From NCBI GenBank assembly GCA_963701085.1, contig OY969561.1, positions 96,001 to 160,000 of the forward strand: a stretch of 64,000 nucleotides of DNA. Direction: 5' to 3'. Source of the stretch: an uncultured bacterium (GTDB lineage: Bacteria > Babelota > Babeliae > Babelales > Vermiphilaceae). A program made the translations under genes and the position numbers. Positions 21,355 through 47,026 of this stretch are shown one piece after another (within the stretch, counting starts at the first letter, position 1; the number at the start of each line of letters is the position of its first letter). The notes below the pieces were generated by a model. That model was given only the letters and a program-made list of their open reading frames with translations, ran no database searches and was not told the origin of the DNA.

Positions 21355-22383
21355 TTATTTTGACAATGTATGTTTTTCACAGCATGGGCCAAAATCGAAT
21401 ATGTCAGATATATCCGGCACATCTTGAGCCCCTTTTTGCGCAAGCGATTTTGCGTAATTGAGTAAAATATACACACAGCAACTTGCTTGTTGAAGGACAT
21501 GTGGAAATTTAGTTATGTAAGTTTTTTGGTGGGGTTGGGTATAGTTATGTAAAGCTAAAAGGGCATAATCAAGAGCAGTGCGGTTGGATGTATCTTTTGC
21601 AAAAGACACCTGATCTTTTTTGACTAACTCAAATAATGCATCAGTTTTGAAATGTGATACAAAAACGTGAGTTAATGTACGACCATTTTCTAATGTTGCT
21701 TCTCTGTAAAGACGGGATATCAGCGATGGTTCTTTTTCTAGTTTTTCTGCTTTAAGTAACTTTGTTAATAAGTCTGGGTCAACATTAAAGGGTATTCCAT
21801 ATCCGTACCATTGAAGTTGTAAATTAATGATGGTAGTGAGGCATTTTTCTTTGAGATGAGGAACAATTCTCAATTTTCCTATATCACTGAGCATAATATC
21901 AAATATTTGACGTGCGATAGTTCTTTCAGATGCTCTGTTATCAACATCATAGGGTAATAATTTTTTAATACACAGATCAAAAGGGGTTTGCCCATCATTG
22001 TTGGTAGTAAGATATTGGCCATTCCCTATTTTTCCGGATAGCCATTTTGCTCTTGATATATCATTTTTTTCTACCGCGATATGAAAGAAAGAATTATTTT
22101 GTGCATCGCAGGTGTTTAAAAATATTTCATACATGAGATAGCTAGGACTGAACTTTGTTATAATAGTGCCGATTTTGAGAAGTTTCTTCATATTTAATGG
22201 TGTTGTACTGATATCAGCTTCTTTGTATTTTTCTAATTTGTTTTTCAAAATATTTTTATAATCAGTACACAATTGGTTATGCATGCCCTTCCAATCAGGA
22301 AGGGCTAATTGATTATTTTGTTCCATGGCATGCAAAGTAGTGTTGATACATATAAGAACTGAAAAAATATACATACTCTTCAT
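21355..22383 (-). CDS. Signal-peptide protein with degenerate ankyrin repeats, tandem paralog 1 (CCEKH tail)
   Basis: TLHA-MEQ leader; FFHIAVEKND, GQTPFDL, TALDYA. Confidence 0.75.
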   Translation of the reverse strand: MKSMYIFSVLICINTTLHAMEQNNQLALPDWKGMHNQLCTDYKNILKNKLEKYKEADISTTPLNMKKLLKIGTIITKFSPSYLMYEIFLNTCDAQNNSFFHIAVEKNDISRAKWLSGKIGNGQYLTTNNDGQTPFDLCIKKLLPYDVDNRASERTIARQIFDIMLSDIGKLRIVPHLKEKCLTTIINLQLQWYGYGIPFNVDPDLLTKLLKAEKLEKEPSLISRLYREATLENGRTLTHVFVSHFKTDALFELVKKDQVSFAKDTSNRTALDYALLALHNYTQPHQKTYITKFPHVLQQASCCVYILLNYAKSLAQKGAQDVPDISDIFDFGPCCEKHTLSK

Positions 22384-23343
22384 CTAAATATCCTTTAACA
22401 ATGTATGCTTTTCACAGCATGGGCCAAAATCGGACATGTCGGATACATCCGGCACATCTTGAGCCCCTTTTTGTGCAAGGCTTTTTGCATAATTGAGCAG
22501 GATGTATACACAGCAACTTGCTTGTTGAAGGATATGTGGAAATTTAGTTATGAGAGTTTCTTGTTGAGGTTGGGTATATTTATGTAAAGCTGAAAGGGCA
22601 TAATCAAGGGCGGTGTAGTTATGCTTGTCTTTTTTAAAGGAAATTCGATCTTTTTTGACTAACTCAAATAAATCATCAGCTTTACACTGTGTTGCAAAAA
22701 CGTGAGTAAATGTGTAGCCATCTTTTTCTTCTTGTGCTTTCTGATAATAGCTGGAAAGTGATGTCTCTAGATATTGATTAACTCTAAACTCACTCCCATA
22801 TTTTTTATGTTTAAGCTGCAAAACAATTATTTGTGATAAGCAACGGTCTCTCTCGTTTGATAATATTTTTTTTGTTAGGATATTAAATATTTTACGGGTA
22901 GTTGCTTTTGTCGCGTCATTAGGTATTTCGGGTAATAATTTTTTAATACACAGATCAAAAGGAGTTTGTCTATTTTTTCCGCGGCGCGAAAAATAGAAGC
23001 TATTTGATCCCGATGAAAGCCATTGCACTGTCGATTCATCATTTTTTTCTACTGCACAATGCAAAAAAGCATTACTTTCTTTATCGCATATTGTATGAAT
23101 AGCAACTTTTAATGTTAAAAAATTTTGTTTTGTTATAGTAGTGCCGATTTTAACCAGTTTATGCATACTCCATGGTGTTATACTGATATCAGCTTCTTTA
23201 TATTCTTCTAATTTGTTTTTCAAAATATTTTTATAATCAGTACACAATTGACTATGCATACCCCTCCAATCAGGAAGGGCATGCATACCATGTGTTGTAG
23301 AATGCGTACATAAGACAAGTAATAAAATATATATATTTTTCAT
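22384..23343 (-). CDS. Tandem paralog 2 (CCEKH tail)
   Basis: Near-identical termini to paralog 1; FLHCAVEKND, QTPFDL. Confidence 0.75.
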   Translation of the reverse strand: MKNIYILLLVLCTHSTTHGMHALPDWRGMHSQLCTDYKNILKNKLEEYKEADISITPWSMHKLVKIGTTITKQNFLTLKVAIHTICDKESNAFLHCAVEKNDESTVQWLSSGSNSFYFSRRGKNRQTPFDLCIKKLLPEIPNDATKATTRKIFNILTKKILSNERDRCLSQIIVLQLKHKKYGSEFRVNQYLETSLSSYYQKAQEEKDGYTFTHVFATQCKADDLFELVKKDRISFKKDKHNYTALDYALSALHKYTQPQQETLITKFPHILQQASCCVYILLNYAKSLAQKGAQDVPDVSDMSDFGPCCEKHTLLKDI

Positions 23344-23373
23344 TGAGTAGATTCTTTCTTGTGTAAAAATTGT

Positions 23374-44773: not shown

Positions 44774-44789
44774 ATTTGGAAAAGTGATA

Positions 44790-45776
44790 ATGGTTAAAGT
44801 GTTTTGTGTAGTTATGTCCCTTCTAGTGCACATGCACGTTTTTGCGCAGCAAGAAATGGTTTCTTGTGCCTCACAATCATTCCATTTGGTTGATAAACAA
44901 CGTAAAGAATTTTATACAGATGATCAAGCGCATCCATGGCGTGAATTAATGGTGCGTGTGTGGTATCCAGCAGATGGTACCGATATACATAAGATATCAG
45001 ATAAGCAACGGTACTACCCGCTGCTTATTTTTTCGCATGGATTGGGCGGTGTATTTAATGGTGATAGTTATGCAACGCTGTGTGAGGCGTGTGTAAAAGC
45101 GGGGTATGTTGTAGCTACAATTTCCCATTCCTATGCATGCAAGCCGGTACAATTTTCTGATGGCCGCATAACAACTCATTCATGGTGGAATGTTGTACCG
45201 GGGTATCTGTCAGGTCGAGAAATGGATGTGTGGGAAGCCGATGTTGAATATGTGCTTAATCAGTGTGAGAAATATACACAGGATGAGCGCTCATTCTTAT
45301 ATAACAAACTTGATTTGAATAGAATTGGCATGTTTGGCCATTCATATGGTGGTGCAGCGGCAGTTCAAATGTGCCGTAAAGATCATCGTATTAAAGCGGC
45401 GATTAATCTGGATGGGCCATTGCGTGGTAATGATGCAACAGCACCATTTAATAAGCCATTACTTTTTATTATTGCGGCACCACTTTCCTATAACAATGCA
45501 TTAATGAAAGATGCAGCAATAGTTAATGATGTTGGTTGGTCACGATGTATGTATTCTCGCGAAATTTCCGTTATTAATGCATTTGCTCAAGCAATGAATA
45601 ATAATGTCTACAAAGTTGTAATAGATGGCATTCGTCATACTACATTTTCTGATGAAATATGTGCGCAACATACACTCTTGGATGATTTTTTGATTGATCC
45701 TTGCGTAGCACATACCATTATCAATTCATATGTAATTGATTTTTTTAATGAGTACTTAAAAGGAATGGAGTTTTGA
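44790..45776 (+). CDS. Exported alpha/beta hydrolase, PAF-acetylhydrolase-like
   Basis: VWYP, FSHGLGG, GHSYGG, INLDG, HTTFSD; the upstream GTG lies inside the repeat. Confidence 0.85.
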   Translation: MVKVFCVVMSLLVHMHVFAQQEMVSCASQSFHLVDKQRKEFYTDDQAHPWRELMVRVWYPADGTDIHKISDKQRYYPLLIFSHGLGGVFNGDSYATLCEACVKAGYVVATISHSYACKPVQFSDGRITTHSWWNVVPGYLSGREMDVWEADVEYVLNQCEKYTQDERSFLYNKLDLNRIGMFGHSYGGAAAVQMCRKDHRIKAAINLDGPLRGNDATAPFNKPLLFIIAAPLSYNNALMKDAAIVNDVGWSRCMYSREISVINAFAQAMNNNVYKVVIDGIRHTTFSDEICAQHTLLDDFLIDPCVAHTIINSYVIDFFNEYLKGMEF

Positions 45777-47026
45777 TGAAAATAATTTTTAATGCAGCAC
45801 TTTTTTTGTTTATATCATATAACGCACAATGCATGGATATTACCCATTGCCCAAAAAATAGTAAAGAAGACGAATTTATTATGTGTATGGCGTCGATGCT
45901 GACGGTATGTAATAAGGTATATTCACAAGAAGAGTTTGAGATGTTTTGTCGTCAAAATTGGAACAATAACAAGGCTATGCGTCAAAATTTTAAAAGTTTT
46001 CTTCGTAATCCACAACCCATTACAAGTCATGAGGATGCGGTTGTTGGGAATGAATTTGTGGCGGACATGGTGCCGCATATGATGGTGTTTAATAAACATG
46101 GATGGTCAAAAGGAGATTGTGAGGCGGTTGCACGTCTACTTTGGTACAACGATGTAAAATTTCGTAGGGAATATAAAAAATCGAAACAGACATTGGTCGG
46201 GCATAGAACATTGGACAATCTCTCTGAGCACACACTTAATATAATTGGAGCATTCACCAAAAGATCTGGCAAAGATACGTTACGATGCGTTAATAGAACG
46301 CTTAACCAAAAAATAATATCACAAGATGAGTTGTATGAGCGCTATAATGAAGCAAAGAAATTAATAAATACATATTTTAAAAAAACAGAAATGAATCGAT
46401 TGTTGTGCTACAGCAGATTTACCCCCGAGCTAAAGTATGAAATGCTTGAGGCTATTAAACATAACAATGCTCCATTCATACGATATTTTTTGAGAAAATA
46501 TGATTTTACTAATGTAGATTTGTACCATTACCTTGCAGCTGCCATCAAGAGCGGTAATAGCGCTGATATATTAAAAATGTTAATTGCAGTAGGCGTTATA
46601 AATCGTATTGATCGCAGTAGTGTTACTGTATTGCAGCATGCGGTAATTAAAGGAAAAATAGAGTTGGTTAGGCAGCTTGTTGCGCATCCAGGTGTTGATA
46701 TAAATCAACAAGATGAATGGGGTAGGACTGCTTTGTTTTTGGCTGTAGAAAACATAAAACCGTTTGATCAATTATCATATGATATGATTAAAGTTCTTCT
46801 TGATGCTGGTGCAGATCATGAGATTGCTGCTATTTACAGGGACAGGACTCCGCTTGATATGGCTAATAGAATCGTTGCTCGGAAATCAAAAAAACCGTAT
46901 TGTAAAATGCATGACTGGTCTATTTTTAGAAAAAGGCGAGCTCTTTGTGAGGCTAAATCAGATCCTAAGCTTGTGTATCCTATTCATCTCATTCAACAAG
47001 CGATAGATAAGAAGTGTGGTATTTAA
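45776..47026 (+). CDS. Signal-peptide protein with internal F-box-like segment and ankyrin repeats
   Basis: AQC-MDI; LDNLSEHTLNII..DTLRCVNRTL; GRTALFLAV, RTPLDMA. Confidence 0.8.
   Translation: MKIIFNAALFLFISYNAQCMDITHCPKNSKEDEFIMCMASMLTVCNKVYSQEEFEMFCRQNWNNNKAMRQNFKSFLRNPQPITSHEDAVVGNEFVADMVPHMMVFNKHGWSKGDCEAVARLLWYNDVKFRREYKKSKQTLVGHRTLDNLSEHTLNIIGAFTKRSGKDTLRCVNRTLNQKIISQDELYERYNEAKKLINTYFKKTEMNRLLCYSRFTPELKYEMLEAIKHNNAPFIRYFLRKYDFTNVDLYHYLAAAIKSGNSADILKMLIAVGVINRIDRSSVTVLQHAVIKGKIELVRQLVAHPGVDINQQDEWGRTALFLAVENIKPFDQLSYDMIKVLLDAGADHEIAAIYRDRTPLDMANRIVARKSKKPYCKMHDWSIFRKRRALCEAKSDPKLVYPIHLIQQAIDKKCGI

Follow-up and report, generated by a model that had tools for sequence, protein, structure and literature searches.

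Why should exported proteins of unrelated kinds begin with Met once their leaders are removed? The question is raised by a 64,000-nucleotide stretch of DNA, the window, which corresponds to bases 96001-160000 of a single-contig genome (G000; 1,198,634 bases, 37% G+C) and whose proteins have public relatives labelled Candidatus Babeliales. A preliminary description of the window had listed 19 exported open reading frames (ORFs) whose leader ends in a small residue followed by Met, and all 19 junctions were found in the window sequence, each with the coordinates of its Met codon. In G000, the junction pattern occurs far beyond chance and is genome-wide rather than local. It is carried by some classes of leader-bearing proteins and absent from others, it is conserved among paralogues and relatives, and its Met is not the present start codon. 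The likely origin and use of this Met are weighed at the end.

Extent and shape of the junction

The ORF set of G000 comprised 1234 ORFs from simple longest-ORF greedy calling, and leader-like N-termini were defined by a K/R-containing start and an uncharged hydrophobic core, which yielded 563. Both the ORF set and the leader detection are home-made heuristics with cleavage sites predicted from sequence rules, and some ORF starts are possibly wrong because genes are fragmented in the assembly. Using a measure that does not presuppose the motif, namely, the residue just before the first charged residue past the hydrophobic core, Met was found in 144 of the 563 N-termini, followed by L (55) and A (54), compared to a background Met frequency of 2.1%. 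The motif [AGSC]M[EDQN] was also 6.2 times more common at positions 15 to 36 (149 in 27,148) than in the rest of the proteins (274 in 309,446).

Among the 423 single-leader proteins of at least 80 residues, 183 have a small residue followed by Met at the end of the leader. This broad M-class, which is contaminated by helix-internal Met, contains a strict M-class of 125 members in which the Met at +1 is followed by E (96), D (19), K (9), or R (1); over the broad class, the +2 residue is E in 96, D in 19, N in 8, and Q in 6 of the 183. Counts over paralogues and relatives overstate independence, and with one representative per BLAST family (85 families), the +2 residue was E in 71%, D in 21%, K in 7%, and R in 1%. 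On the other side of the junction, in 133 proteins with a single hydrophobic segment and Met just before the first charged residue, position -1 relative to the Met was A, G, S, C, or T in 125 cases, compared to 33% in leaders overall. Position -3 was L (39), I (26), A (19), T (17), or V (14) in 115 of these 133 proteins, L and I being bulkier than the classical optimum of signal peptidase I (SPase I). Judging from these rules, the -1/-3 pattern is the signature of an SPase I site located exactly before the Met. The preliminary description had placed the cleavage at this very bond, which is consistent with the -3/-1 rule and remains a prediction from sequence alone.

The leaders appear to be of the Sec type. 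The 125 strict M-class leaders have a mean length of 21.9 residues (standard deviation, 3.2), a net charge of +1.55 over the first 8 residues, and a mean hydropathy of 2.0 from -15 to -5, and they resemble 71 non-M leaders in these properties. A positive n-region, a hydrophobic core, a small residue at -1, and a small or aliphatic uncharged residue at -3 are all present, as in SPase I substrates. G000 encodes a single SPase I (one PF10502 gene, with two matched stretches within one 340-residue frame), which rules out a second, dedicated signal peptidase, and PF10502 was present in 41 of 41 genomes of a sample of the phylum.

Other leader types were considered and rejected. Lipobox-like strings, as in lipoprotein leaders cut by signal peptidase II, were found in 3 of the 183 M-class leaders, whose +1 residue is Met by definition of the class. 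An RR pair occurred in 1 of 183 and a motif resembling that of the twin-arginine translocation (Tat) pathway in 0 of 183. Type IV prepilin leaders do not fit either, as the M-class hydrophobic core precedes the Met and polar sequence follows it; the two N_methyl pilins found in G000 form a separate group. A common leader cassette spread by recombination was also discarded, given that one representative per family showed only the usual weak c-region preferences besides positions -3, -1, +1, and +2.

Proteins that carry the Met, and its conservation

Ankyrin and WD40 proteins that bear N-terminal leaders abound in G000, as reported for cultured Dependentiae. Pfam was run on all 423 single-leader proteins, and domain categories were assigned by hand. 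The broad M-class junction was present in 36 of the 39 proteins with ankyrin, WD40, or C2H2 zinc-finger domains and in 134 of the 263 that matched no Pfam family, compared to 1 of 33 cell-envelope housekeeping proteins, 11 of 67 proteins with other enzymes and domains, and 1 of 21 cytoplasmic proteins wrongly flagged as leader bearing. The sole envelope match is false, being an A-M dipeptide within a pilin helix. The difference between repeat and envelope proteins has a Fisher p value of 9e-16, computed over paralogues that are not independent. The enrichment of +1 Met in exported ORFans over periplasmic housekeeping proteins, which the preliminary description had put forward, was therefore borne out. 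The envelope set included TolB, Skp, BamD, TamB, thioredoxins, FKBP, S41 protease, ZnuA, binding proteins, DegP, secretin, MlaD, penicillin-binding proteins, and others; several of the 33 are membrane anchored and not cleaved, and envelope leaders end at ordinary sites such as ISA/DE in TolB and INA/EQ in Skp (the slash marks the predicted cleavage site here and below).

The Met was also absent from collagen-like and S74 fibre proteins, BNR proteins, glycoside hydrolases, and most peptidases. Members of the M-class include an S-adenosylmethionine (SAM) methyltransferase, a thymidylate kinase, and a HIT protein, all enzymes needing cytosolic cofactors, as well as two PLD-like proteins and one patatin-like lipase. 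M-class genes are lower in G+C than other ORFs (median, 33.8% versus 37.8%) and cluster together, 91 of the 183 having an M-class neighbour where about 50 would be expected.

Single genes elsewhere in G000 illustrate both kinds of leader. A leader followed by a small residue and Met-Glu was seen in a thymidylate kinase (L123:3271-4002), a C2H2 zinc-finger protein (L103:3323-4042), and a CwfJ/HIT-like protein (L098:3347-4477); these two enzymes and the eukaryote-type zinc-finger DNA-binding protein are candidate host-directed cargo. Nucleotide-sugar enzymes and glycosyltransferases at L087:1160-13627, L089:3792-11383, and L139:7269-11201 (GDP-mannose dehydratase, epimerases, GT1, GT2, GT6, LicD, and UDP-glucose dehydrogenase) all have hydrophobic leaders without the Met tag, which is unusual for enzymes needing cytosolic cofactors. 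Huge leader-bearing proteins of up to 4385 residues, equally untagged, lie at L086:3512-7489, L088:10631-15420, L097:14518-17580, and L104-L107; they carry collagen triple-helix repeats and an S74 "chaperone of endosialidase" domain and resemble phage tail fibres.

Conservation of the Met was evident among divergent paralogues. In pairs with under 40% identity across the mature parts, both members had the Met in 85, one member in 15, and neither in 35. When such pairs were aligned on the Met, identity was 79% at +2, 58% at -1, and 11-28% from +3 to +10; this alignment makes identity at +1 trivially 100%, and the fair figure is the split of 85 versus 15. M-class members occurred in 134 of 326 BLAST families, 127 of which consisted of M-class members throughout.

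Public relatives gave a similar picture, with the +1 Met retained down to about 26-37% identity. In the first family of the window, which has 17 public relatives, the small residue and Met were found in 11 of 12 leader-bearing aligned sequences (window paralogues included) down to about 40% identity, and 3 of 16 public gene calls begin at the Met itself. Among 53 relatives of the window methyltransferase, 36 had a leader followed by [AGSCT]-M-[ED] and 1 had MM[ED], while 11 calls start at ME, 1 call is truncated, and in 4 the Met is replaced by A or I. A broader scan of 1.84 billion representatives (50% clustering) for the methyltransferase gave 129 sequences of 200-400 residues among the best 150. 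Of these 129, 71 bear a leader, with a small residue and Met near the leader end in 39 of the 71 and with Met (29) and Ala (12) as the commonest residues before the first charge.

The spread of the junction across the order was sampled in the first 400 kb of four genomes, using the residue-before-first-charge measure. Met preceded the first charged residue in 27 of 174 leaders in G005 (same genus as G000) and in 23 of 187 in G001 (another family), compared to 4 of 158 in G018 (same family as G000) and 7 of 204 in G040 (another family). G005 favours Met-Asp (SMD, 8; AMD, 4), and G001 favours Met-Glu. In G040 (L045-L064, G040:C1:1-400000), Gln was the commonest residue before the first charge (29/204), and 21 of 25 ankyrin-like ORFs have leaders, mostly ending in YAAQ and then E or D. 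This expanded ankyrin family, with leaders ending in S-M-Y-A-A-Q before the E or D, displays a differing junction motif, and its A-Q-E/D junction may be the local counterpart of Met-Glu. The tag is thus widespread without being universal, and sister lineages use variants of it.

The preliminary description had allowed that the Met might simply be the true start codon, which does not hold for present-day genes. A Shine-Dalgarno (SD)-like motif (score of at least 4) was found upstream of 59 of 133 leader starts (44%) versus 2 of 133 +1 ATGs (2%); the corresponding figures were 87 of 259 for long cytoplasmic genes and 168 of 2765 for internal in-frame ATGs. In public relatives of the first window family, the leaders are still hydrophobic peptides that no stop or frameshift interrupts. 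In addition, Met-Glu is not the usual start context, because E accounts for only 12 of 259 second residues of cytoplasmic proteins in G000, where K, I, N, and S lead. A few single ORFs are probably mis-extended and truly start at the internal Met; examples are those of a GalU-like enzyme and a short-chain dehydrogenase, whose relatives in G040 and G001 begin there. Gene callers often start tagged genes at the +1 Met as well, which strips the leader and leaves the secreted status hidden or under-annotated in public databases. For instance, public call P0018, 99% identical to the window methyltransferase with its GTG-start leader, begins at the +1 Met and is thus leaderless, as are P0008, P0009, P0013, P0020, P0031, and others.

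Historically, the Met was probably a start codon after all. In the methyltransferase family, the distance from the +1 Met to a conserved Trp has a median of 11 residues (interquartile range, 10-12; n = 27), and in leaderless homologues, the distance from the initiator Met to this Trp has a median of 12 residues (interquartile range, 6-16.5; n = 46), a match that is inflated by the presence in the leaderless set of same-family gene calls starting at the +1 Met. These matching distances suggest that leaders were added upstream of existing start codons, which is also consistent with the restriction of the Met to normally cytosolic or eukaryotic families.

The nineteen junctions and neighbouring genes

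In 15 of the 19 window junctions, the Met is followed by E (10), D (2), Q (2), or N (1), in agreement with the preliminary count; the remaining four are MH (2), MW, and ML. The automatic leader rule recovers 14 of the 19, which are the 14 M-class members among the 32 ORFs called in 21355-47026, and the other 5 were judged by eye. Of the ORFs that the rule missed, those at 33460, 34288, and 38937 have a charged residue in the c-region, and those at 39356 and 39840 overlap each other and were lost through the ORF filter or start choice. The passengers named in the preliminary description were confirmed by Pfam for the ankyrin, WD40, and methyltransferase proteins and by a solved structure for the macro domain. 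No F-box was matched by Pfam in 24560-25225 or 39843-40448, even at an E value of ≤10. The label "ORFan" suits the 11 of 19 proteins without a Pfam family at an E value of ≤0.01 and is contradicted by the 17 public relatives of the first family.

That first family consists of three paralogues on the minus strand with weak ankyrin matches that fall under the Pfam cut-off (21355-24342). The exported protein at 21355-22383 has a 19-residue leader ending in TLHA/MEQNNQ (Met codon at 22324-22326), and its paralogues at 22384-23343 and 23374-24342 have leaders ending in TTHG/MHALPD (23284-23286) and AVHA/MENNQL (24283-24285), respectively. Pfam-supported ankyrin proteins are found at 32093-32872 on the plus strand (ALHG/MEIVVD; Met codon at 32162-32164), at 35400-36527 on the minus strand (PIIC/MEPQVI; 36459-36461), and at 45773-47026 on the plus strand, where the ORF has a TTG start (NAQC/MDITHC; 45833-45835). 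The class I SAM methyltransferase lies at 25670-26554 on the minus strand (SLSC/MEKQII; Met codon at 26501-26503). The MacroD-type macrodomain protein at 29560-30426 on the plus strand matches the solved structure 5fsz_A (E = 9.6e-7) and has a leader ending in GVYG/MEVRRE (29620-29622). The WD40 protein at 38073-38927 on the minus strand has the junction ATNG/MDKSSD (38859-38861). Directly downstream of it on the same strand, at 37743-38030, a leaderless WD40 fragment of 95 residues may be the detached C-terminal part of the same gene.

The other junctions belong mostly to proteins without a Pfam family. On the plus strand, these are the ORFs at 24560-25225 (TIYA/MELTTT; Met codon at 24614-24616), 28709-29563 (YVYG/MELIDK; 28766-28768), 42288-42893 (PLHS/MENATT; 42369-42371), and 33460-34284, whose c-region contains a Glu (SEISA/MQLVTK; 33526-33528). 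A paralogue of the last one at 34288-34968, also on the plus strand, ends its leader in SEMCA/MQLVTR (34354-34356) and has one extra hydrophobic segment. On the minus strand are an 81-residue protein at 35085-35330 (TIHA/MNNSEI; 35256-35258) and, without a Pfam family, the ORFs at 37094-37591 (SAQG/MWFEAQ; 37529-37531) and 39840-40448 (TIHA/MEKMPH; 40389-40391). Two further minus-strand ORFs also have no Pfam family. The one at 38937-39326 (TKACA/MLCIKK; 39258-39260), with a Lys in the c-region, has the least canonical junction. The other, at 39356-39751, probably starts at 39751 (start codon at 39749-39751), with a leader that begins MKNMQLFF and ends in TSHG/MHKSLS (39692-39694). Two neighbours serve as contrast cases with leaders lacking the Met, one at 32873-33364 on the minus strand (PSFA/AQHV) and one encoding a platelet-activating factor acetylhydrolase-like hydrolase at 44766-45776 on the plus strand (HVFA/QQEM). 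The part of the window that is rich in tagged genes, 20000-48000, has a G+C fraction of 0.33-0.38 versus 0.39-0.40 in its flanks.

Interrupted genes were encountered in several parts of G000. Fragmented housekeeping genes, among them those for DNA polymerase III alpha, aldehyde dehydrogenase, Mur ligase, and tRNA synthetase, were noted at L099:7722-8984, L099:9842-10207, L101:17899-18189, L111:2073-2435, and L134:6240-6635, which suggests sequencing-error frameshifts or ongoing gene decay. A GspD-like secretin gene at L137:2-2398 (G000:C1:993226-995622) contains an in-frame TAG and an in-frame TAA, and a second secretin gene at L137:5004-7249 is split over two frames. These secretin genes are either pseudogenes or assembly errors, a matter that bears on any type II-based export model. 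An alternative genetic code was rejected as an explanation for the in-frame TAG and TAA, since all three stop codons are in normal use.

Possible uses of the Met and known systems

The reading that we favour, tentatively and with less than even confidence, is that the initiator Met has been retained as a Met-acidic N-terminus that is read by the host and borne by host-directed cargo. Sec-type signal peptides would be cut by the single SPase I directly before the Met, itself the old initiator codon of once-cytosolic or acquired proteins (ankyrin, WD40, macro, methyltransferase, kinase, and lineage-only proteins). Export would have arisen through the gain of a leader ahead of that codon, with the Met and the following acidic residue maintained by selection ever since and the mature protein beginning with Met-Glu or Met-Asp. 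This N-terminus would mark cargo that acts inside the host cell, and it is missing from residents of the envelope and from most surface or hydrolytic proteins. An effector would then reach the host looking like a native cytosolic protein, with a NatB-type N-terminus that goes unseen by known N-degron receptors. Met-Asp, Met-Glu, Met-Asn, and Met-Gln make up the NatB substrate set and are not primary, secondary, or tertiary destabilizing N-termini in the Arg/N-degron rules.

Several points weigh against a host-read N-terminus. Cleavage at the bond before the Met is predicted from sequence rules, and delivery of M-class proteins to the host cytosol is likewise presumed. A few M-class members are surely false, such as the short-chain dehydrogenase and the GalU-like enzyme, paralogues and relatives are non-independent samples, and the positional match with leaderless methyltransferases is inflated, as mentioned above. 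NatB normally works on nascent chains, which makes acetylation of an imported protein speculative. Ala, Ser, Thr, Gly, or Val at +1 would serve just as well to avoid N-degrons, and such avoidance does not alone explain the kept Met; the Ala-Glu variants of relatives would likewise be harmless N-termini under a host-side reading. Furthermore, Ala replaces the Met in some relatives, and in G040 the ankyrin proteins bear A-Q-E/D, with Met found in just 7 of the 204 leaders of that genome. Finally, E outnumbers D by about 3.4 to 1 in G000 but its congener G005 prefers M-D, which a universal host enzyme would not predict.

Class specificity and conservation are compatible both with a host-like N-terminus and with a sorting code, in which a bacterial factor reads either Met-Glu/Asp or the junction [LI]-x-[AG]/M-[ED] in full and separates effectors from residents for a second export step (type II-like, by vesicles, or by another route across the host membrane). 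We consider such a code possible but doubtful. Class specificity is what a sorting signal predicts, and the variants of the tag (M-E in G000 and G001, M-D in G005, and A-Q-E/D in G040) fit a reader co-evolving with it. Post-cleavage sorting signals also have precedents in the lipoprotein +2 rule, the Bacteroidetes lipoprotein export signal, and the Plasmodium export element (PEXEL). Genes for a secretin, a protein like component C of type II secretion systems, a type II secretion ATPase, and a pseudopilin are present in G000, and type II secretion is reported as the only system detected in Babela (PMC4378268). However, no candidate reader was found, and the GspD-like secretin ORF is interrupted by in-frame stops, possibly an error given that other genes are fragmented too. 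To our knowledge, type II substrates have no linear signal. The tag is not a general outer-membrane export tag, because proteins that cross the outer membrane (collagen-like proteins, S74 fibres, glycoside hydrolases, and peptidases) are mostly untagged, as are the other enzymes (11/67 tagged).

The remaining explanations dispense with any reader. A Met that is only a functionless remnant of the old start, persisting because the leaders arose recently or because ATG mostly mutates by single bases to residues that do poorly at +1, seems unlikely to us. It agrees with the positional equivalence of the +1 Met and the start of leaderless homologues, with the confinement of the Met to typically cytosolic or eukaryote-like classes and its absence from ancient envelope proteins, and with the lower G+C of the M-class, which suggests a younger or foreign gene pool. 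Such a fossil is nonetheless hard to reconcile with conservation: of the 100 paralogue pairs that are informative and under 40% identical, 85 retain the Met while their flanks are 11-28% identical, it persists across distant public relatives, and +2 is acidic in 115 of 125 cases, unlike the second residues of cytoplasmic proteins. Still less probable is that each gene yields two products, an exported form from the leader start and a cytoplasmic form from the +1 Met, or, at the extreme, that translation begins solely at the +1 Met and never includes the leader. The Met codon is indeed conserved, many public calls begin there (11 of the 53 methyltransferase relatives; in the first family, 3 of 16), the GalU-like enzyme and the short-chain dehydrogenase probably do start at an internal Met, and a missing SD is not decisive where only about a third of G000 genes have a clear one. 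Yet SD-like motifs favour leader starts over +1 ATGs by 59 to 2, the small -1 residue in 125 of 133 proteins would be meaningless in an untranslated leader, leader length and hydrophobic pattern are kept in relatives without stops or frameshifts, and a bacterial-cytoplasm form of ankyrin or WD40 host mimics has no obvious use. A general preference of SPase I for Met at P1', phylum-wide in the manner of the Q-rule, is scarcely credible, even though the LepB gene is single and lineage-specific +1 rules such as the Q-rule are known (PMC5837995, PMC10653852). The 33 envelope housekeeping proteins (TolB, Skp, thioredoxins, S41 protease, binding proteins, and others) include 0 true cases, many G000 leaders end in A/E, A/D, or A/K, and Met is rare in two of the four relatives (4/158 and 7/204); a general preference is excluded because the one SPase I must cut both kinds of site. 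Dual initiation and a general peptidase preference thus find little support.

Returning to a retained initiator Met, the data point to a route by which cytosolic proteins became effectors, namely, the addition of a leader upstream of an old start codon. A two-residue, class-specific mark makes it testable how genome-reduced Dependentiae, with only Sec and a type II-like system, deliver their many eukaryote-like proteins, as the mark predicts roughly 180 host-directed proteins in G000. A bolder claim, which we hold more loosely still, is that Met-Glu/Asp is a true destination code of Sec-dependent Dependentiae effectors, PEXEL-like, derived from fossil start codons, and read by either a bacterial export step or the N-acetylation/N-degron machinery of the host. 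If so, a two-residue rule would define an effector set of about 15% of the proteome across a phylum of protist parasites, with sister lineages using variant tags such as Met-Asp or Ala-Gln-Glu.

Leader-bearing ankyrin proteins of Dependentiae are already in print. Babela massiliensis has Sec-type leaders on 79 of 126 ankyrin proteins (PMC4378268), and Chromulinavorax destructans has leaders on 78% of its ankyrin proteins and 44% of all coding sequences (PMC6561590); in both cultured species, the leader-bearing ankyrin proteins are assumed to be sent to the host. The leader-bearing eukaryote-like proteins of G000 represent the same biology. Supplements aside, neither main text gives a cleavage-site residue rule, the word "methionine" occurring 0 times in PMC4378268 and "cleavage" and "N-terminal" 0 times in PMC6561590. 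Full-text literature searches, whose coverage excludes subscription journals and supplements, retrieved no description of a +1 Met rule, and the junction motif was not found in print within that coverage.

The nearest described rule is the Q-rule of Bacteroidetes, in which Gln occupies +1 of most SPase I substrates and is cyclized to pyroglutamate (PMC5837995, PMC10653852). Both are lineage-specific preferences at +1 of SPase I substrates, and the effect of the Q-rule is likewise thought to lie in the chemistry of the N-terminus that cleavage creates. The terms methionine, TM6, and Dependentiae were looked for in PMC5837995 and not found. In contrast to the Q-rule, the preferred residue in G000 is Met, it is coupled to an acidic +2, and it is confined to effector-like proteins (envelope, 1/33, false), whereas the Gln would be expected in housekeeping substrates too. 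The Q-rule also depends on a cyclase, and we know of no modifying enzyme for the Met rule.

Closer in purpose is PEXEL, a motif behind the endoplasmic reticulum-type signal peptide that marks host-bound proteins and whose processed N-terminus is acetylated, with E, Q, or D at position 2. PEXEL differs in belonging to a eukaryotic parasite, in requiring a dedicated aspartic protease, and in having an R-x-L core about 15-30 residues past the signal peptide, whereas the tag described here would sit at the signal peptidase site of a bacterium. In the lipoprotein +2 rule (Lol avoidance) and the Bacteroidetes lipoprotein export signal, residues right after the cleavage site, often acidic, set the compartment; those signals come after a lipidated Cys at which signal peptidase II cleaves, unlike the +1 Met of G000 with its near absence of lipobox-like strings (3/183). 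NatB acts mainly cotranslationally on host ribosomes, and any acetylation of the bacterial tagged proteins, or N-degron effect on them, is hypothetical. In its +2 spectrum (E, 96; D, 19; N, 8; Q, 6 of 183), the tag nevertheless matches the NatB substrate set.

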